Of a DNA stretch of 27,004 nucleotides, positions 1,569 to 25,581 are shown one piece after another (the stretch's first letter is position 1; each line of letters opens with the position of its first letter). The notes below the pieces were generated by a model. It was given only the letters and a program-made list of their open reading frames with translations, searched no databases and had not been told where the DNA came from. Origin of the DNA: Alphaproteobacteria bacterium (lineage in GTDB: Bacteria > Pseudomonadota > Alphaproteobacteria > Rickettsiales > UBA8987); assembly GCA_003531345.1 (NCBI GenBank), contig DQGZ01000228.1, positions 1 through 27,004 of the forward strand, in the 5' to 3' direction. The position numbers were made by a program, and so were the translations under genes.

Positions 1569-2996
1569 CTAAAAATGAATCGCCTGTTTATCGGCATCTA
1601 GCACCGCTTCGTGCATCATTTCTGATAAAGTTGGGTGAGCAAAAATTGTATGCATGAAGTCATAATTTGTAAGCTCGGCGGTTTTGCCAACCACATAGCC
1701 TTGAATCATTTCCGTAACTTCGCTACCGACCATATGCGCGCCTAAAAGCTCACCAGTTTGCGCGTCAAAAATTGTTTTGATGAAGCCTTCAGTCTCGCCC
1801 ATTGCTATTGCCTTGCCATTGCCAATATAAGGGAATCTGCCAACTTTAATGCTGTAGCCTTTTTCTTTTGCTTTATCTTCGGTTAAACCAACTGATGCAA
1901 CTTGCGGGTAACAATAAGTGCAACCCGGAATATTTTCTTTCACGATTGGGTGCGGCTGATGGTCAAACTTGCCTTCTAAATACGCAATATTTTCAACGCA
2001 GATAATCCCCTCGTGTGAGGCTTTATGCGCCAACCACGGAGCGGACACCACATCACCGATTGCATAAATTCCGTCTTCATCTGTTTTGCAAAATTCATCA
2101 ATTTGGATTTGGTTGCGCTCAATTTTTACTCTTGTGCCTTCTAATCCTAAATTCTCTGTATTGCCCATAACGCCAACCGCAACGATAACTTTCTCAACTT
2201 TTATTTTTTCTATAGTGCCGTCTTTTGCTTTAAGATTTACTGTTACTTCGTCTTTACCTTTTTCTATTGAAGCCTGAACATTTGTTTTAATTTTCAAACC
2301 TTGTTTCTCAAAAGTTTTTTGCATAAAGGCTGAAACTTCTTTGTCTTCAACTGGTAAAATTCTATCCATCGCTTCTACCAAAGTTACATCAACGCCCATA
2401 TTTTTATAGAAGGATGCAAACTCCGTCCCAATAGCGCCACTACCAATTACAACCAAAGTTTTTGGCATTGCATCTGGTGTCATTGCTTTTTTATAGCTCC
2501 ACACTTGTTGCTCGTCATGCTCAAGCCCAGGGAAGGTTTTTGCACGTGCGCCAGTTGCAAAAATTATGTGTCTGCTTTCAATATCTGCAATTCTTTTACT
2601 ATCTCTGTCACCAGATTCACGCACAGAAATTTTGCCTACTCCGTTTAGTTTTCCATAACCATTAAACACTTCAACTTTATTTTTCTTCATTAAATGCTTG
2701 ATACCTTCAGTCAGTTTTTTTGAAACATTGCGTGAGCGCTCAATAATTTTTTTGAAATCAAATTTGATATTTTCTGCTGATAAACCAAACTGGTCTAAAT
2801 TGTGCATTAAGTGATAAATTTCAGAACTACGAAGTAGCGCTTTAGTAGGGATACAGCCCCAGTTAAGGCATATACCACCCAAATGTTCGCGTTCAACCAA
2901 TGCCACTCTATAGCCCAGTTGTGATGCACGAATTGCCGCAACATAGCCACCAGGGCCACCACCAATTATTGCTATATCAAATTTATTTTCTGTCAT
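1569..2996 (-). CDS. lpdA: Dihydrolipoamide dehydrogenase (E3)
   Basis: GGGPGGYVAA FAD motif, redox-active GGICLNWGCIPTK, GSGAIG NAD motif, C-terminal HPTLSE. Confidence 0.97.
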   Translation of the reverse strand: MTENKFDIAIIGGGPGGYVAAIRASQLGYRVALVEREHLGGICLNWGCIPTKALLRSSEIYHLMHNLDQFGLSAENIKFDFKKIIERSRNVSKKLTEGIKHLMKKNKVEVFNGYGKLNGVGKISVRESGDRDSKRIADIESRHIIFATGARAKTFPGLEHDEQQVWSYKKAMTPDAMPKTLVVIGSGAIGTEFASFYKNMGVDVTLVEAMDRILPVEDKEVSAFMQKTFEKQGLKIKTNVQASIEKGKDEVTVNLKAKDGTIEKIKVEKVIVAVGVMGNTENLGLEGTRVKIERNQIQIDEFCKTDEDGIYAIGDVVSAPWLAHKASHEGIICVENIAYLEGKFDHQPHPIVKENIPGCTYCYPQVASVGLTEDKAKEKGYSIKVGRFPYIGNGKAIAMGETEGFIKTIFDAQTGELLGAHMVGSEVTEMIQGYVVGKTAELTNYDFMHTIFAHPTLSEMMHEAVLDADKQAIHF

Positions 2997-3052
2997 AATT
3001 TACTCCAATTTTTATTTGTATTACTTATTATTCAAATGCTTTTCCGCCTAAA

Positions 3053-3073
3053 CCCTTCCCGCTTGCGAGGGAG
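3053..3073. repeat. Degenerate short REP-like palindrome
   Basis: CCCTTCCCGCTTGCGAGGGAG, an imperfect CCCGC-TT-GCGGG-type hairpin resembling alphaproteobacterial intergenic palindromes. Confidence 0.35.
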
Positions 3074-3084
3074 TAGTTTTTTTC

Positions 3085-3174
3085 GTCATTGCGAGTAACA
3101 ATGTGACGAAGCAATCCATCCTCACGAGCGATAATACCACCCCGATGGATTGCTTAGCATTTGCTCGTAATGAC
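3085..3174. repeat. Rickettsia-palindromic-element (RPE)-like / MITE-like inverted repeat
   Basis: GTCATTGCGAG...GAAGCAATCC / GGATTGCTT...CTCGTAATGAC architecture; perfect 12-bp inner IR 3109-3120/3144-3155 and outer arms 3085-3096/3163-3174. Confidence 0.75.
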
Positions 3175-3263
3175 AATTTGTTCCTTCTACATTGGTAAAG
3201 TGTTAGGAATGATTGACCTCTGCTAAGCTTATACGCAACAGTACTATACCGCCCCTCACAAGC

Positions 3264-3289
3264 AAAAAACCCAGCAAAAGCTGGGTTTT
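3264..3289 (-). terminator. Rho-independent terminator of rplU-rpmA
   Basis: Minus strand CCCAGC-TTTT-GCTGGG followed by T6, about 27 nt after the rpmA stop. Confidence 0.8.
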
Positions 3290-3316
3290 AAATTCCTCAA
3301 AACTAAAAGTGCACAA

Positions 3317-3583
3317 CTATACAACTGCTGTAGTTGGAACAACAGAAACATAACTCCTGTCATTTGCTTTAGTTTCAAACTTAACTATGCCATCTACTAA
3401 TGAATAGATTGTATGGTCTTTACCTAAACCAACATTCTTACCTGGCTTCCATTTAGTTCCTCTTTGGCGAACCAATATACCACCTGCTAAAACTGACTGA
3501 CCACCAAATCTTTTGACACCTAACCGCCTGCCATCCGAGTCGCGTCCGTTACTACTACTACCACCTGCCTTCTTGGTTGCCAT
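3317..3583 (-). CDS. rpmA: 50S ribosomal protein L27
   Basis: [29 protein letters not shown] signature. Confidence 0.98.
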
Positions 3584-3620
3584 AAAATCTCCGTACTATT
3601 TGTATTAATAATTATTTTAA

Positions 3621-3932
3621 TTAAGCTTCTATTGCTGTTATTTTAACTTTAGTTACCAATTGCCTGTGACCGTTCTTCCTGCGGTAATTGTGCCTACGCT
3701 TCTTCTTGAAAACAAGAATCTTGTCGTCTTTGAACTGCTCAAGAACTTCTGCTGCAACAGCAGCATTAGCAACAGTAGGTTTACCTAAAGTAACCTGATT
3801 ATTGCTTTCAATAGCTATTACCTCATTGAAACGAACTGTTTCACCAACCTGTGCATTCAGTTTTTCAACTTCTAAAATATCATTTTGGCTTACTTTGTAC
3901 TGTTTGCCACCAGTTTTTATTACCGCAAACAT
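3621..3932 (-). CDS. rplU: 50S ribosomal protein L21
   Basis: MFAVIKTGGKQYKV...KKKRRHNYRRKNGHRQ; GGAG SD at 3939-3942 supports ATG at 3932. Confidence 0.98.
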   Translation of the reverse strand: MFAVIKTGGKQYKVSQNDILEVEKLNAQVGETVRFNEVIAIESNNQVTLGKPTVANAAVAAEVLEQFKDDKILVFKKKRRHNYRRKNGHRQLVTKVKITAIEA

Positions 3933-3962
3933 AAATATCTCCATAATTAAAAAGGGAACGCC

Positions 3963-3990
3963 TTTATACTTATGAAAACTTTACTGTCAA
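3963..3990 (-). promoter_or_regulatory. sigma70 promoter of rplU-rpmA
   Basis: TTGACA (3985-3990), 16 nt, TATAAA (3963-3968) on the minus strand. Confidence 0.6.
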
Positions 3991-4003
3991 CAATTAATAG
4001 CTA

Positions 4004-4031
4004 TTGCTTTGGTTATTTGTGCTGGTATAAG
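4004..4031 (+). promoter_or_regulatory. Probable sigma70 promoter of dnaN, divergent from rplU
   Basis: TTGCTT (4004-4009), 16 nt, TATAAG (4026-4031). Confidence 0.4.
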
Positions 4032-4074
4032 GAAAATCGCTATATATTTGTAACTAAAATCATCCTATACAATT

Positions 4075-5217
4075 ATGGAAAATGCAGCTAGAAAAATAGA
4101 GCCAAAATTGGCGCTTTCACTTACTATAGAGAAAAATGCCTTGCTCGGTTCGTTATCAAAATTACAGTCTTTTGTTGAAAAAAGAAATACCATACCAATT
4201 TTATCAAATGTTAAGCTGGACGCTGACCAGAACGGCTTGACCCTTACCGTAACCGATATGGATCTTGTAGTCTCTGAAACTGTTGAGGCGGCGGTCAGTG
4301 AGGAAGGATCTTTGACAGTTCCTGCAACAACCCTTTATGACATCATAAGGAAATTGCCTGAAGGTGCACAGGTTAAACTGGACCTTGATACCAAGTCATC
4401 ACGCGTCAATATAAAATCAGGCAACTCAAAATTCACTCTTTCCTACCTACCTTCTGATGATTTCCCTGTAATGTCTGAAGGAACTTTGACTCACCAATTC
4501 AGCTTAAAATCAAAAGATTTCCTGAAGCTTATCGAAAAAACTCGATTTGCAATGAGCACCGAAGAAACAAGATACTATTTGAATGGTGTTTATTTCCACA
4601 CTGTCGAGAATAGTTTAAAAACTGTATCTACTGATGGGCATAGGCTTGCAAAAGTTGAAATAGAAGCACCAGAAGGCACAAAAGGAATGCCAGGAGTTAT
4701 AATTCCTAGAAAAGCAGTTAATGAGATAAACAAAATCCTTGAAAATCAGGAGGAGGTTAAAATTTCACTATCTGACTCAAAAATTAAATTTAATGCAGGC
4801 AAAATTGAATTACTTTCAAAAGTAGTTGATGGTACATTTCCTGATTATGCACGTGTTATTCCAGAAAATAATGTTAAATTCCTGACAGTGAACAGCAACT
4901 TAGTAAGAGAGGCAATTGATCGTGTTGCAACAATTACCGCTGATAAAACTAGGGCAGTTAAGCTTAACTTAAGCAAAAACAACCTAAATATCAGCGCTCA
5001 GGGTATTGAGGGTATATCTGGTAATGAGAATGTTGAATGCACCTACCAGAGTGATGCTATTGAAGCAGGTTTCAATTCAAGATATTTGCTTGAAATGCTT
5101 TCTCTTGTTGAGGGGGTAGAAACTAATTTTGCATTTGATACTGCAAACTCTCCAGTAATAGTTACTGACTCAAAAGATACTTCAGCTTTATTCATCATAA
5201 TGCCGATGAGGGTATAA
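4075..5217 (+). CDS. dnaN: DNA polymerase III beta sliding clamp
   Basis: RNTIPILSNV, EETRYYLNGVYF, STDGHRLA, VDGTFPDY, C-terminal IIMPMRV. Confidence 0.98.
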   Translation: MENAARKIEPKLALSLTIEKNALLGSLSKLQSFVEKRNTIPILSNVKLDADQNGLTLTVTDMDLVVSETVEAAVSEEGSLTVPATTLYDIIRKLPEGAQVKLDLDTKSSRVNIKSGNSKFTLSYLPSDDFPVMSEGTLTHQFSLKSKDFLKLIEKTRFAMSTEETRYYLNGVYFHTVENSLKTVSTDGHRLAKVEIEAPEGTKGMPGVIIPRKAVNEINKILENQEEVKISLSDSKIKFNAGKIELLSKVVDGTFPDYARVIPENNVKFLTVNSNLVREAIDRVATITADKTRAVKLNLSKNNLNISAQGIEGISGNENVECTYQSDAIEAGFNSRYLLEMLSLVEGVETNFAFDTANSPVIVTDSKDTSALFIIMPMRV

Positions 5218-5718: not shown

Positions 5719-5859
5719 AAGCCTTGCGGTTACTAGATTTTAATTACATATTAGCGCAAACCATTACAGTAAACACTTGTAAGTACAAATATTCCTTTAG
5801 CAATTGTAATGTAAATTATTAAAAAACCTTCACTCAAATCTGTCTGAAAAACTACAAAT

Positions 5860-6792
5860 CTACCTATCAAAAACACTTCCTATTCTTTTGAAAATGTTTT
5901 GTTTAGGTTTTTCAGGATCTTGTTTGGGCTTTTCTGAAAGATTTTTCATCATTTTTTGAACTTTACTATCTAAAGCATGTTCGTCAGTTAATTCCAAAAA
6001 TATAGGCCTTGATTCTATCGCTAATGGAGCTCCTAGTTTTACAGCTTCTTTTCTTGCATCGATTTCTACTCTCGTCACTTTATCAGTTGCAATTAAAAAT
6101 CTTTCAAAACTATTATATTTTTCCCGATCTCTTTCAACTTGAGGTAATTTATTAAGAGTTTCTTCAGGTGTTTGCGGAAATTTTTTTAACAAATTATCTA
6201 AAGATATTACATAAGAATCATTTGTTTCATCTGTACGAAATACCGATGGTTCAATATATAAATCTTTTATACTGTCTGGATCCATTATCTCAACACTGTT
6301 ATATGGATATTCAGCTGAGCGAAGAATTAAACTGCCATTTTTGCCCTTTTCTTGAGTATATTTTGCTTGTTGATCTAAACTTAGATATAAATCTTTTTTA
6401 GAGCCTATTAAAAGTTTTGTATCCCCAGAATCACGATAAAAACTCTTCCCTACACTTGGATTAAGTTCTTCATCTACTGCACCTGAATTACCTAAATTTG
6501 CAAATGCAATACCTGCTTTTTTGTCATCAAAGAATAGATTATCAAAATTTTTTGTAATTCCTGCTTTTAAATTTTCTATACTGAGTATAGTACTCTTGTG
6601 AACATATTGACCACTAGGTTCCTGCCAAGAATATCCAAAATTTACTTTTGTTGCCCCTTCAGGAATTACTACTTCATTTCCTGTAGGGTGTCTTGAATCA
6701 TCTAATTCTAGTAACTTTCTTGTCCCTCCTACTTCTACATATTTGAATTGTTCGGAGTTTCCATGAATATAAAATTCTTTATCTTTTGACAT
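5860..6792 (-). CDS. Hypothetical protein (orphan, hydrophilic, basic C-terminus)
   Basis: 310-aa ATG-initiated ORF filling the rpiB-glyA gap; no signal peptide, TM segment or recognised motif. Confidence 0.7.
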   Translation of the reverse strand: MSKDKEFYIHGNSEQFKYVEVGGTRKLLELDDSRHPTGNEVVIPEGATKVNFGYSWQEPSGQYVHKSTILSIENLKAGITKNFDNLFFDDKKAGIAFANLGNSGAVDEELNPSVGKSFYRDSGDTKLLIGSKKDLYLSLDQQAKYTQEKGKNGSLILRSAEYPYNSVEIMDPDSIKDLYIEPSVFRTDETNDSYVISLDNLLKKFPQTPEETLNKLPQVERDREKYNSFERFLIATDKVTRVEIDARKEAVKLGAPLAIESRPIFLELTDEHALDSKVQKMMKNLSEKPKQDPEKPKQNIFKRIGSVFDR

Positions 6793-6935
6793 ATTACGTC
6801 GAAATTATGTTTCGACCTGAGGATAACAGAAAATGGTTAACAAAACGTTAACACTTGCTTTTTTCTAGATTTTATTTTAGAAGCCCCAAAAATAAAGTAA
6901 TTATTATGCCACAAACTAAAACAAAATTAAACCAC

Positions 6936-8261
6936 ATGACTAATCAAAACCCATTTTTTACAGCAACATTTGAAGAAACCGATGCGGAGTTAAAAGCCGC
7001 AATAGATGGCGAGCTTAGCCGCCAGCAAAACCAAATTGAGCTTATCGCCTCTGAGAATATTGCGTCAAAAGCAGTTATGACAGCTCAAGGAAGTGTTTTC
7101 ACTAATAAATATGCCGAAGGTTATCCAGCTAAAAGATATTATGGTGGCTGTGAATTTGCTGACAAAGTAGAGCAACTGGCGATTGACAGAGTTTGCAAAT
7201 TATTTAATGCTAAATATGCCAATGTTCAGCCTAATTCTGGCTCTCAAGCCAACCAAGCAGTGTTTACAGCCTTAATAAAACCTAATGATACAATATTAGG
7301 GCAGTCTTTAGCGGCAGGCGGACATTTAACACACGGTGCCGCACCTAACCAGTCTGGCAAATGGTTTAACTCCATTCAGTATGGCGTTCATAAAGATACT
7401 GGGTTGTTGAATTATGAAGAAATTGAAGAGCTGGCACAAAAACATAAACCTAAATTATTAATTGGTGGTTTTTCGGCTTATCCAAGAGTAGTTGATTGGG
7501 CAAGATTACGCAAAATAGCTGATTCTGTTGGAGCATTCTTCCTTGTTGATATGGCGCATGTTGCAGGTTTAGTAGCGGCAGGTGAGTACCCTTCCCCACT
7601 TCCATATGCTGATGTGGTAACCTCAACTACACATAAAACTTTACGCGGTCCTCGTGGTGGCATTATCTTATCAAACTTCCCTGATAAAGTAGTGCGCAAA
7701 ACAGAAAAAGGCACTGAAATTACATTGGCTTCTGCAATTAACTCAGCAATTTTCCCTGGAATTCAGGGCGGGCCACTTGTTCATGTAATTGCTGGTAAAG
7801 CAACAGCTTTCAAAGAAAATTTAGACCCTTCATTTAAAGTTTACGCTAAGCAAGTAATTGAAAATGCTCGTGCATTAGCAGAAACATTAATTAAGCGCGG
7901 AGCTGATATTGTTTCTGGCGGAACTGATAACCACATAGTATTAGTTGACCTTCGCCCTAAAAATCTAACAGGCAAAGCAACAGAAGAGTCATTAGAGCGA
8001 GCAGGTTTAACTTGTAACAAAAATGCTATTCCTTTTGACCCACAACCGCCTTTTGTTACTTCTGGGATTCGTTTAGGCACACCTGCTGGAACAACTCGTG
8101 GTTTTGGTAAAGATGAATTTATTCAGATTGGTAATTTAATTGGCGATGTATTAGACGGGTTAGCTAAAAACCCTGAAAATAACAGTGAAGTTGAAGCGAA
8201 AGTTAAGAAACAGGTGGAAAGCCTTTGTGCCAAATTTCCTATCTACGAAAAGAGTTTTTAG
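6936..8261 (+). CDS. glyA: Serine hydroxymethyltransferase
   Basis: [25 protein letters not shown] motif [14 protein letters not shown]; start at 6936 (or 6906), not the TTG at 6855. Confidence 0.98.
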
Positions 8262-23083: not shown

Positions 23084-23160
23084 GGGTGGTTAGCTCAGAT
23101 GGTTAGAGCGCTACGTTGACATCGTAGAGGTCGTTGGTTCGATCCCAATACCACCCACCA
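23084..23160 (+). tRNA. tRNA-Val(GAC)
   Basis: Acceptor GGGTGGT/ACCACCC plus encoded CCA, D-arm AGCTCAG...AGAGC, anticodon arm CTACG-TTGACAT-CGTAG, T-loop GGTTCGATCC; 77 nt. Confidence 0.97.
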
Positions 23161-23309
23161 TTTTGTAAAAACTTTGATTAGGTTTAAGCCTTAAATTGAT
23201 AATATTTGTATTAATAGTTAGTTTATTGAACTGAAATATAACTGACCTTCAATATCCAATTATGTCCGTTTCATATCCATTAAATTTGCCTGGATTATCT
23301 TAAATCACC

Positions 23310-23990
23310 CTAAAAACTTGCGAATATTGGCATATGGTCGCTATGTAGCAACCACTCTTCTGGCTTTCCTATTTCAATTTTTGCGTCTCTAGTTATCATT
23401 TCTTTTGGTACAAAAATATAGTCTATATGATAAGGTTTTAACTTATCTCTGTACATGTAAAGCGTTGCTTCACTTTCTTTTCCTTGATTCTCTCCTGTTA
23501 TTTCGTGATAAAGGCTTTTTATACCAATTTCGTCTAATATCTTAACCACCTCCGAGTGGTTCCATTCTCTTTTTGGCTTGTCCCAACAAGAATTACTATT
23601 AAAATCCCCACATAATATTGTTGGTTGGTTTGCAATTTCTTGTTTGTGTTTATTTAAATATTTCCATAGCTGACCTATGTAAGAAAATTTATCTCCCTGA
23701 TCTTGCTTTGTCCATACCGCAATTAAGTTTATACTATCATTTACTCTTACTGGAAGAAAGTGTTTTAGATCTTCTGAATCCCAATTTAGAGGCTCTAGCT
23801 TTTGGTTTTTATTGCATATTACAGCTAGTCCTCTTTTTTCTCCCTTCCAATAAAATTGCTGGTTTTGGTATATATCTTCTATTTCTTGCTTTCCGCACTC
23901 CTGCAAGACTAGTATATCTAAACCTAGTGGCTCTAGTAATTGAGCCTTTTTTCTATACGCACCGTTACAATTCCACGATACAATTTTCAC
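23310..23990 (-). CDS. Endonuclease/exonuclease/phosphatase (EEP) family protein
   Basis: SWNCNG, DILVLQEC, CGDFNS, HIDYIF, SDHMPI motifs; GTG start overlaps the upstream TAG (TAGTG). Confidence 0.9.
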   Translation of the reverse strand: MKIVSWNCNGAYRKKAQLLEPLGLDILVLQECGKQEIEDIYQNQQFYWKGEKRGLAVICNKNQKLEPLNWDSEDLKHFLPVRVNDSINLIAVWTKQDQGDKFSYIGQLWKYLNKHKQEIANQPTILCGDFNSNSCWDKPKREWNHSEVVKILDEIGIKSLYHEITGENQGKESEATLYMYRDKLKPYHIDYIFVPKEMITRDAKIEIGKPEEWLLHSDHMPIFASF

Positions 23991-24211
23991 TATTTACCCT
24001 TTCCGCACTTAATTTTGCCTTCTTTTCCTGCGTCTTTACCTTTGCAACAGCATTTCTCTTTACCGCATTTTTCGCATTTGCATTTTTCCTTGCAACAACA
24101 AGGTTTTTCCCTGCCTGATATGTCACACCCCCTGCCCTTCTGCATATTGCAACATGAGGCTAAAGCCGCAGTTGCGAAAGCAATTGTTATAATGTTCAAT
24201 AGTTTTTTCAT
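23990..24211 (-). CDS. Small Cys/Lys-rich, metallothionein-like predicted lipoprotein
   Basis: AAGGAG SD 5 nt before ATG; MKK plus hydrophobic core plus lipobox LASC; 13 Cys in 73 aa with CCC and CxCxxC clusters. Confidence 0.75.
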   Translation of the reverse strand: MKKLLNIITIAFATAALASCCNMQKGRGCDISGREKPCCCKEKCKCEKCGKEKCCCKGKDAGKEGKIKCGKGK

Positions 24212-24213
24212 AG

Positions 24214-25116
24214 TTACTCCTTTTTGGTTAATTTCCTTATCATCAGCCTTTTCAACCTTCTTGGGTCAGCTTCTAATATTTCAAACTCAATTTCATCATT
24301 CATTTTAATTATCTCACCTTTGACTGGTATTCTGGAGGTGAGGTTGAATATCAGCCCGCCTATTGTGTCATATTCGTTATTTTCTGCTAGTTTTATATCC
24401 AGTTCTGTTTTCTTTATGATATCTTCAATATACATTCTTGAAGATACTTCATATTCATTATCATTCAGTTTATTGAATATAAGGTTGGTATCTTCCCTGA
24501 CATGCTCGTCTTCAATATTACCAACTATTTCCTCAATAATATCTTCTAGGGTAACTATACCTTCTGTTCCACCATATTCATCAACTACTATTGCAATGTG
24601 AACATGGCTCTGTTGCATGCGGATAAGCAGATTGCCTATTTTCATTGAAGCAGGAACAAACAGACATTTCCTAATAATATCAGCTATTTTCAATTTTGTT
24701 TTGTTGAAAAAACTGCGTGCAACATCTTTGATATGTATAAAACCCAGAACCTCATCAAGGTCACCTTTATATACTGGAATTCTGGTATAGGTTTTTCCTA
24801 ACAATTTTTCCTGAAGATTTTCAAAATCTATATCGCTGGGAATTGAAAATATATCAGACCTAGGGATCATTATATCTTCCACATAAAGCTCATTGAATTC
24901 CAAAATATTTCTGATAATTGCCTTTTGTCCATCTGGAATATCTTCCTCTGTATGTTGATTTTCATCAAGAATTTCCTCCAGAGACTCTCTGAGGCTTTGT
25001 TTTTGCCTGAAGTTAAATATATTTGTAATTCTGCTTATTGTGTTTAGAAGCTTTTCTTTAACCTCTCCCTGGTATTCCTTATCGTGTTTTTCAAATGTAT
25101 CTTCTTTGGTATTCAT
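24214..25116 (-). CDS. HlyC/CorC-family CBS-domain protein (Mg/Co transport-associated, TlyC-like)
   Basis: VEDIMIPRSDI, YTRIPVY, HIAIVVDEYGGTEGIVTLEDIIEEIVGNIEDEH, C-terminal YDTIGGLI transporter-associated domain. Confidence 0.93.
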   Translation of the reverse strand: MNTKEDTFEKHDKEYQGEVKEKLLNTISRITNIFNFRQKQSLRESLEEILDENQHTEEDIPDGQKAIIRNILEFNELYVEDIMIPRSDIFSIPSDIDFENLQEKLLGKTYTRIPVYKGDLDEVLGFIHIKDVARSFFNKTKLKIADIIRKCLFVPASMKIGNLLIRMQQSHVHIAIVVDEYGGTEGIVTLEDIIEEIVGNIEDEHVREDTNLIFNKLNDNEYEVSSRMYIEDIIKKTELDIKLAENNEYDTIGGLIFNLTSRIPVKGEIIKMNDEIEFEILEADPRRLKRLMIRKLTKKE

Positions 25117-25209
25117 GAACTTAAATTTATACCCTAAAAGGTGGATTGTATTTGATATTTACGCAAAAATCTATATCTAATATCATTAATTTTAATTAGT
25201 AATATCTGG

Positions 25210-25581
25210 ATGGCAAGTATAGGTACAAAATTATTTACTTTATTTTTTGGTCAGAAAGTTGGGGAAGATGTATTCGGAAACATATATTACCAAACTAGAA
25301 AGCCGCAAAGTACCGTTGGAAGGTATAATAAGAACAGAAGATGGGTTATTTTTAATGGTAAAAATGAACCTTCTAAGGTTCCTGCTGAATGGCATGGCTG
25401 GCTTCATTTTTCCTTTGACGAAATTCCTGATATCAAGGTAAAAGGATATTATTGGCAAAAATCTCATACCCCAAACCTTACTGGAAGTGACCTCATGTAC
25501 TTACCTTATGGTCATAAAGAATCCATAGGTAAAAGGGAAAAAGCTACTGGTGATTATAAACCATGGAAACCAAATCAATAA
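25210..25581 (+). CDS. NADH:ubiquinone oxidoreductase subunit NDUFA12-family protein
   Basis: GQKVGEDVFGNIYY, RRWVIF, SKVPAEWHGWLH, HTPNLTGS, GDYKPWKP. Confidence 0.92.
   Translation: MASIGTKLFTLFFGQKVGEDVFGNIYYQTRKPQSTVGRYNKNRRWVIFNGKNEPSKVPAEWHGWLHFSFDEIPDIKVKGYYWQKSHTPNLTGSDLMYLPYGHKESIGKREKATGDYKPWKPNQ

Follow-up and report, generated by a model that had tools for sequence, protein, structure and literature searches.

A cysteine- and lysine-rich lipoprotein precursor encoded between corC and gap in an uncultured Rickettsiales: a plausible metallothionein-like protein and its rival readings

The stretch of 27,004 nucleotides analyzed here, referred to below as the window, carries on its minus strand a short gene (positions 23990-24211, stop codon included) whose 73-residue product, P0001, is predicted to be a Cys/Lys-rich lipoprotein precursor. 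The main result of our analysis is that, as judged by comparison with the one homologue found, this gene is real, coding and under purifying selection, and that it is, on the evidence of the searches reported below, a genus-level orphan that was inserted, or arose, between corC and gap. Its host is an uncultured Rickettsiales from bioreactor sludge. A metallothionein-like function of P0001 is plausible and seriously rivalled by a role as a disulfide cross-linker: sequence and structural model together depict a tethered, presumably disordered, polycationic chain with thiols as its conserved feature, and these two mechanisms fit such a chain.

The gene and the case for its translation

The translation of positions 23990-24211, taken from the list of open reading frames, agrees exactly with the original prediction of a 73-residue product with 13 Cys residues and a lipobox. 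On the basis of the lipobox pattern and hydropathy, residues 1-19 (24155-24211, minus strand) are predicted to form the signal peptide; the codon of Cys20 (24152-24154, minus strand), located by the same lipobox pattern, would specify the lipid-modified first residue of the mature protein, and the 53 residues that follow (21-73; 23993-24151, minus strand) make up the putatively tethered part, which is rich in Cys, Lys and Gly. Counted from Cys20, the mature protein comprises 54 residues, among them 13 Cys (24%), 15 Lys (28%) and 9 Gly, and it carries a net charge of +10. The absence of Phe, Trp, Tyr and His from this part, as well as the arrangement of two CCC triplets around a CxCxxC segment (CKCEKC), had been pointed out before and both hold for P0001. 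With overlaps counted, the mature part contains five CC motifs, one CxC and one CxxC, and a conserved KIKCGKGK lies near its C-terminus. Lipidation of Cys20 would leave 12 free Cys residues.

A Cys content of this order is not attributable to chance, since the probability of encountering at least 13 Cys in 73 residues is 1e-13 at the 0.9% Cys content of the genome and 4e-7 for random codons of the same base composition, and since P0001 is the most Cys-rich ORF among those of at least 40 residues in the whole 1.48-Mb assembly. The remaining Cys-rich short ORFs of the assembly are out-of-frame noise, aromatic and hydrophobic. Tandem Repeats Finder reported no array within the P0001 ORF.

The gene is tightly packed between its neighbors. 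Upstream lies a co-oriented corC of the soluble CorC/YbeX type (24214-25116, minus strand; 300 residues, identified by its Pfam CBS and CorC_HlyC domains), whose TAA stop ends 2 nt ahead of the P0001 ATG and whose last codons harbor, as the original prediction had it, an AAGGAG Shine-Dalgarno sequence (24217-24222, minus strand); its spacing from that ATG is 5 nt. Downstream, a gene for a 226-residue protein of the endonuclease/exonuclease/phosphatase (EEP) fold (23310-23990, minus strand; Pfam Exo_endo_phos, 5e-10) overlaps the P0001 gene, for the TAG stop of the latter and the GTG start of the former have the G at 23990 in common; this overlap, too, had been correctly read from the sequence. 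In a consensus scan, the best sigma-70-like match is TTGCCA-16-TAAAAT (10/12), at 25189-25216 of the minus strand and upstream of corC. It may be put forward as a candidate promoter that would serve corC, the P0001 gene and the EEP gene alike, but only as a suggestion, because the number of candidate sites in the region is not above that in shuffled sequences. For the same reason an internal promoter for the P0001 gene was rejected: promoter-like sites are no commoner than in shuffles.

The evidence for coding comes from P0002, the sole homologue of P0001, a protein of 68 residues encoded on a 598-bp ENA metagenome contig (locus L009). The check proposed with the original prediction, a search for homologues adjoining corC-like genes, is answered by this locus, in which P0002 occupies the same slot, directly 3' of the C-terminus of a corC orthologue with 81% amino-acid identity to that of the window over the last 70 residues. 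The AAGGAG and its 5-nt spacer are kept, and the corC stop overlaps the P0002 start as ATGA. Between the two small genes pN is 0.14 and pS 0.87, figures that derive, like all conservation statistics given here, from one pairwise comparison with saturated synonymous sites, because the family has only two members. In the signal peptide, 9 synonymous changes are found versus 1 non-synonymous change (pN 0.018, pS 0.61), and each of the five indels between the genes (1, 3, 7, 4 and 4 codons) keeps the frame. At this divergence, omega is ~0.03 in the flanking fragments of corC and gap, and the window's long antisense ORFs have no conserved counterpart in L009. Hence, a homologue in the same slot, a pN well below pS, in-frame indels and a conserved Shine-Dalgarno sequence combine to argue that the P0001 gene is real, and they lend support to the genuine translation that had been assumed from its ribosome-binding site and overlaps. 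Neither of the two run searches listed RNA runs carrying the sequence; the DNA runs are bioreactor and activated-sludge metagenomes.

The same alignment reveals what is conserved in the mature region. Cys is kept in 10 of the 11 aligned Cys columns, compared with 19 of 31 columns (61%) at non-Cys positions. On the other hand, Cys totals differ (13 in P0001 vs 10 in P0002, or 12 vs 9 once the lipidated residue is set aside), the 3-, 7- and 4-residue indels fall within the Cys core, and three Cys residues of P0001 are lost or gapped in P0002. The mature part of P0002 contains 20% Cys, one Tyr and one His, has a net charge of +8 and lacks both CCC triplets and CxxC. The C-termini differ as well, with GKGK in P0001 and an added EESK in P0002, both ending in Lys.

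A two-member family and its genomic context

The distribution of this family is extremely narrow. When 1.84 billion cluster representatives were searched exhaustively with an HMMER profile, P0002 was the only match. A word-indexed search of 5.8 billion proteins likewise returned P0002 alone when queried with full-length P0001, and just P0001 itself when queried with the mature part. Scanning genome and metagenome contig collections with the two-sequence alignment yielded no relatives, 60 related genomes gave chance-level matches only (E > 0.01), and no paralogue of P0001 was found in its own genome. The best entries of the ESM Atlas, clusters without a name, scored 0.87-0.88, which is under the threshold of usefulness. 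Five other metagenome contigs do bear the P0001 gene, and they are 99.99-100% identical to the window, corresponding to the same strain; they therefore add no information on population variation. The protein itself has been deposited by gene callers, unnamed, in NCBI nr, IMG, ENA and Logan, which contradicts the earlier expectation that annotation would miss it.

Searches against described families point in the same direction. A Pfam-A hmmscan with E-values up to 10 assigned no family to P0001, to its mature part or to P0002 beyond a lipobox match, the matches in Pfam and NCBIfam taken together being restricted to the level of the signal peptide (PG1828_fam_lipo, LPAM_1), and no PDB sequence matched P0001 at E-values up to 10. 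Among the profiles of particular interest, P0001 matched neither that of SmtA/BmtA (PF02069) nor Chlam_OMP3, the OmcA profile (Pfam-A, E up to 10 in both cases), nor that of DUF2282. Judged by sequence, P0001 and P0002 thus constitute an undescribed family that lies outside the metallothionein and OmcA families, and the claim of novelty made in the original prediction is borne out by the lack of any Pfam, NCBIfam or PDB match beyond the leader and by the finding of two members in 1.84 billion representatives. AlphaFold2, run on the two-sequence alignment, gave a mean pLDDT of 42.8 and no confident fold, with neither helix nor coiled coil in the model beyond the signal peptide. Such low values are consistent with a chain that would fold around ligands alone.

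Inspection of the corC neighborhood in each of the 17 remaining genomes of the family helps to place the origin of the gene. In the nearest genera (L016-L020), whose corC products are 54-58% identical to that of the window, corC is directly convergent with gap and no small gene lies between them. Four genera at a greater distance (L024, L027, L029, L031) have, after corC, an ORF of ~480-490 residues, which we take to be lnt on account of its length, a hydrophobic N-terminal region and the synteny known for ybeX and lnt. The corC-lnt order is arguably the older arrangement. The genus-level novelty of the P0001 gene follows from the recovery of P0002 alone, from the absence of the gene in 60 related genomes and from the fact that corC abuts gap in the nearest genera.

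The neighboring genes are of little help in assigning a function. The corC product, which adjoins the small gene in both known instances, contains a CBS pair and a CorC_HlyC domain (Pfam, 6e-17 and 3e-15, respectively) without a membrane domain, and it has partial matches to CorC and GldE in NCBIfam. No metal-resistance, metal-sensor or metal-transport gene is adjacent to the P0001 gene. The adjacency of corC is accordingly little evidence for a role in metal handling, because its product is of the soluble CBS plus CorC_HlyC type, its partner in the distant genera is the presumed lnt and no metal-resistance gene lies nearby. As compared with L009, the window has an extra downstream segment that contains the EEP gene and a tRNA-Val, the latter being the only Rfam match nearby. 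The EEP gene, which is found in 5 of the 60 related genomes, was rejected as a functional partner, since it is absent from L009 and does not adjoin a small Cys-rich gene in any of the three relatives' loci inspected (L078-L080).

Predicted export to the envelope and candidate functions

The N-terminal region of P0001 has the features of a lipoprotein leader of the Sec/SPII type. An MKK n-region precedes a 16-residue hydrophobic core (mean Kyte-Doolittle 1.9) and the lipobox L-A-S-C20; the PROSITE-type lipoprotein pattern and its n- and h-regions are matched by both P0001 and P0002; the leader resembles other lipoprotein leaders of the same genome, and NCBIfam PG1828_fam_lipo matches residues 1-25 only (E 0.002). 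The genome encodes the maturation enzymes Lgt (PF01790, 1e-59), LspA (PF01252, 3.5e-35) and Lnt (TIGR00546, 3e-91), as well as LolA (1.6e-16). The pattern and this enzymatic complement support the lipobox assignment of the original prediction, and P0001 is predicted to be a lipoprotein. In Escherichia coli, lipoproteins without Asp at position +2 are directed to the outer membrane. The +2 residue of mature P0001 is Cys, and an outer-membrane localization is thus probable, as Asp is lacking at that position.

The genome also gives an outline of the compartment that P0001 would enter. Three DsbA-like thioredoxin domains, of which a pair stands in tandem within a single frame, are encoded together with DsbB, and this compartment is hence expected to be oxidizing. 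Peptidoglycan is probably present, given that penicillin-binding transpeptidases are encoded, and a gene for an L,D-transpeptidase of the YkuD type lies near lolA. Several Cys-rich orphans that appear to be exported and belong to no Pfam family are found as well, on contigs C40, C45 and C63 (837 residues with 69 Cys, 317 with 22 Cys and 449 with 24 Cys). Away from the P0001 gene, on contig C204, a DUF2282 precursor adjoins an enzyme of the MbnB/TglH/ChrH type, a pair that we take for a bufferin-type periplasmic copper-peptide locus, and an HMA domain is also encoded. P0001 itself, lacking DUF2282 and residing elsewhere, differs from bufferin-type RiPP precursors, in which DUF2282 stands next to an MNIO enzyme.

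We tentatively favor, as a reading with a fair way to go before it commands confidence, the notion that P0001 acts as a tethered metal-thiolate buffer. P0001 would be exported via Sec and lipidated at Cys20 through the action of Lgt, LspA and Lnt, and LolA would then pass it to the outer membrane, where a 53-residue, unstructured and strongly cationic chain of Cys, Lys and Gly would stay tethered in the envelope. With some 9-12 thiols as its working part, the chain would wrap soft metal ions, either Cu(I) or Zn(II)/Cd(II), in thiolate clusters, and the flanking Lys residues would offset the charge of these clusters, as they do in eukaryote-type metallothioneins. The outcome would be a small membrane-bound periplasmic metal buffer in a bacterium living inside protists, the phagosomes of which use Cu and Zn against bacteria. 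The localization of P0001, its thiol state and any binding of metal are here what we infer from its sequence and from the genes around it.

The composition of P0001 is the first argument for this buffer, and the likeness to metallothioneins noted at the outset is supported in this respect. Both members of the family resemble metallothioneins in being small, with 20-24% Cys, Lys beside Cys and few or no aromatic residues or His, and P0001 shares with them the CC, CxC and CxxC motifs and the lack of a stable predicted fold of its own (pLDDT 42.8); in P0001 in particular, a Cys content of 24% and a Lys content of 28% go together with a complete lack of aromatic residues and His. The preferential conservation of Cys (10/11 vs 61% elsewhere) argues for a metal-thiolate function as well, and so does the variable number and spacing of Cys (13 vs 10), which cluster-forming thioneins tolerate, unlike fixed disulfide folds. 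Finally, the DUF2282/MbnB-like pair and the HMA domain suggest that envelope copper matters to this host.

Other observations weigh against a metal buffer. The closely spaced Cys residues of an unfolded chain exported via Sec would tend to be oxidized by DsbA/DsbB; no metal gene is adjacent, corC being of the soluble YbeX type with lnt as its partner in distant genera; neither SmtA/BmtA nor any metal-binding family is matched; and P0002 has Tyr and His and is devoid of CCC and CxxC. To our knowledge, SmtA and MymT are cytosolic proteins with no signal for export; P0001 differs from them in its Sec/SPII-type signal, which would lead into the DsbA/DsbB compartment, and from SmtA also in lacking its zinc-finger core and Pfam match. 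As far as searched, the literature on exported or lipoprotein bacterial metallothioneins yielded engineered surface displays and reviews only. Bacterial metallothioneins, SmtA and MymT being those described in a review of the field, fold upon metal binding, and the same review describes Csp1, a Tat-exported, pre-folded, tetrameric, Cys-lined four-helix bundle that stores copper (PMC7558416). Csp1 resembles P0001 in combining export with many Cys residues, and it demonstrates that metals can be stored on thiolates beyond the cytosol. On the other hand, P0001 has a Sec-type lipoprotein signal without a twin-Arg motif and no predicted helix in its mature part, and the Tat route and rigid helical architecture of this characterized exported copper store count against the metal reading of P0001.

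The serious rival to a metal buffer is a disulfide cross-linker resembling chlamydial OmcA, the closest architectural analogue; the original prediction had taken neither OmcA nor the oxidizing compartment into account. In this scenario, which we consider rather unlikely and nevertheless weighty, P0001 would be oxidized by DsbA/DsbB and would form intermolecular disulfides with Cys-rich envelope proteins, thereby stiffening or sealing the outer membrane in a hypothetical extracellular or infectious stage, an effect that reduction would reverse once the host is contacted. OmcA, a Cys-rich lipoprotein of 9 kDa, acts jointly with OmcB and MOMP to make the outer membrane of elementary bodies rigid through disulfides (PMC2811131, PMC3561449). 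The architecture of P0001 is that of OmcA, a Cys-rich lipoprotein of ~9 kDa in an obligate intracellular bacterium, very small, with its Cys residues behind a lipobox and its thiols expected to act at the outer membrane or in the periplasm. In Anaplasma, surface disulfides have to be reduced by host PDI for entry, the disulfide-bonded proteins being unidentified (PMC6989111), and this precedent from the Anaplasmataceae also speaks for cross-linking in a Rickettsiales host. The three DsbA-like domains and DsbB would supply the oxidizing power, and the orphan exported proteins with 69, 22 and 24 Cys might serve as partners. The nine free Cys of P0002 are an odd number and therefore entail at least one unpaired or intermolecular Cys, and rapid evolution by indels fits a surface or structural protein of low complexity.

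Other points speak against a cross-linker. P0001 has no detectable sequence similarity to OmcA (Pfam, E up to 10), is far more Lys-rich and lacks aromatic residues; any partners of the OmcB/MOMP type would be hypothetical; and the host appears to make peptidoglycan, which would render a substitute corset less needed. Moreover, almost every Cys in P0001 is flanked by Lys. Lys on both sides of Cys is a hallmark of metallothioneins and is not known as a feature of OmcA.

A different possibility, which we regard as improbable, is that Lys and not Cys does the work. P0001 would then be a cationic surface or periplasmic tether, either an outer-membrane lipoprotein linked via a Lys to peptidoglycan in the manner of Lpp by an L,D-transpeptidase, or a polycationic adhesin for anionic host glycans or LPS. 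The net charges of +10 and +8, the Lys at the C-terminus of both proteins, the proximity of the YkuD-type gene to lolA and the small size of a lipoprotein without Asp at +2 are all in keeping with this view. Yet with Lys at 28%, chance would place this residue at the end of both proteins ~8% of the time, their C-termini are otherwise unlike (GKGK vs the added EESK), no coiled coil or helix is predicted past the signal peptide, and preferential conservation falls on Cys rather than on Lys.

The original prediction had also offered a disulfide-knotted mini-protein as an alternative, that is to say, a fixed module akin to toxins, inhibitors or defensins, held by six intramolecular disulfides on a lipid anchor. 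The even number of free Cys in P0001 (twelve) and the oxidizing destination would suit it. This fixed knot is nonetheless a poor fit and very improbable, because the free Cys number 12 in one protein and 9, an odd figure, in the other: Cys totals change from 13 to 10, with three Cys of P0001 lost or gapped and indels of 3, 7 and 4 residues inside the Cys core. Vicinal CCC triplets are unfavorable for defined intramolecular pairing, hydrophobic or aromatic core residues are lacking, and there is neither a confident model nor a sequence relative in the PDB.

Least credible of all is the view that the frame is functionless, be it an ORF due to chance, one in decay or a newly formed gene that has acquired no role, derived from AAA/TGC-rich low-complexity DNA between corC and gap: its confinement to one genus-level lineage and the direct contact of corC and gap in the nearest genera would allow for it, but it hardly withstands a pN far below a saturated pS, a frame kept through five indels, a signal peptide whose protein sequence hardly varies although 9 synonymous changes are found, a conserved Shine-Dalgarno sequence and antisense ORFs that are not conserved in L009.

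Implications for envelope biology in the Rickettsiales

The metal-thiolate buffer can be cast in evolutionary terms, with somewhat greater reserve than the function itself, as a lipid-anchored, Sec-exported metallothionein, a thiolate metal sponge of the envelope, that might have arisen de novo in one protist-associated genus of Rickettsiales. Characterized bacterial metallothioneins are rare and cytosolic, and Csp1, known as an exported store of copper on thiolates, is a rigid bundle that leaves the cytosol via Tat. If P0001 does buffer metals, a disordered, lipid-anchored chain of the metallothionein type in an oxidizing periplasm would represent a new answer to envelope metal stress, and one of relevance to bacteria that face Cu or Zn poisoning inside protists. 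If it acts instead as a cross-linker, it would provide a non-homologous analogue of OmcA in the Rickettsiales, an order in which surface disulfides matter for infection. The weight of the finding is bounded by two sequences, one lineage and an uninformative gene context. Under either reading, the P0001 gene neatly exemplifies a low-complexity gene of recent birth that selection has maintained.

Apparent gene turnover downstream of corC

The 3' flank of corC seems to be a hot spot of gene turnover in this family. In four more distant genera (loci L024, L027, L029 and L031), corC is followed by an open reading frame read as lnt. This linkage is broken in the lineage of the window, whose corC occupies positions 24214-25116: here lnt resides on a different contig (C246:3423-4646 of the source assembly, G000), and the old lnt position after corC is now taken by the lipoprotein gene. 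At the corC locus of one relative (L021, on contig C120 of G004), the gene just 3' of corC is neither gap, the gene adjoining corC in the nearest genera, nor lnt; it encodes a 249-aa pilin-like protein with a GFTLVE N-terminus and eight Cys.

A second element of this region comprises tRNA-Val(GAC), on the forward strand (23084-23160), and a gene of the endonuclease/exonuclease/phosphatase (EEP) fold, on the reverse strand (23310-23990). The EEP gene is patchily distributed (5 of 60 relatives, at 46-54% identity), which suggests that the tRNA-Val/EEP segment is an accessory insertion. The whole segment (23084-23990) is missing from the metagenome contig carrying the sole homologue of the small lipoprotein (L009), and there gap directly adjoins the small gene.

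A possible bufferin-type locus elsewhere in the genome

Contig C204 of the same assembly encodes, on its reverse strand, an exported DUF2282 protein of 152 aa (2713-3171) and, directly downstream, an MNIO enzyme of the MbnB/TglH/ChrH family (1721-2551; E 7e-104). The pair is preceded by a LysR regulator and followed by argG, and no DUF2063 partner was found at this locus. It looks like a bufferin-type RiPP locus, for a putative periplasmic copper-binding peptide, in a Rickettsiales MAG.

Cysteine-rich and envelope-related proteins

Three further Cys-rich orphans of this genome belong to no Pfam family. The largest, a pseudopilin-like giant (C40:8657-11167; >837 aa, 69 Cys, 8.2%), is open at the contig end and has a type IV pilin-like N-terminus with a GFTLIE motif. 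The other two, of 317 aa with 22 Cys (C45:2533-3486) and 449 aa with 24 Cys (C63:10066-11415), have signal-peptide-like N-termini and are possible disulfide-rich envelope components.

On contig C206, two tandem DsbA-like Thioredoxin_4 domains lie in one 414-aa open frame (3194-4261), possibly a fused double DsbA. After it comes an esterase-like protein that is exported and contains 15 Cys (6278-7282). Finally, a YkuD L,D-transpeptidase gene (C120:4015-4419 of G000, reverse strand) and lolA (5810-6277, forward strand) are found about 1.4 kb apart, a proximity that may be relevant to outer-membrane-peptidoglycan tethering in the source organism.
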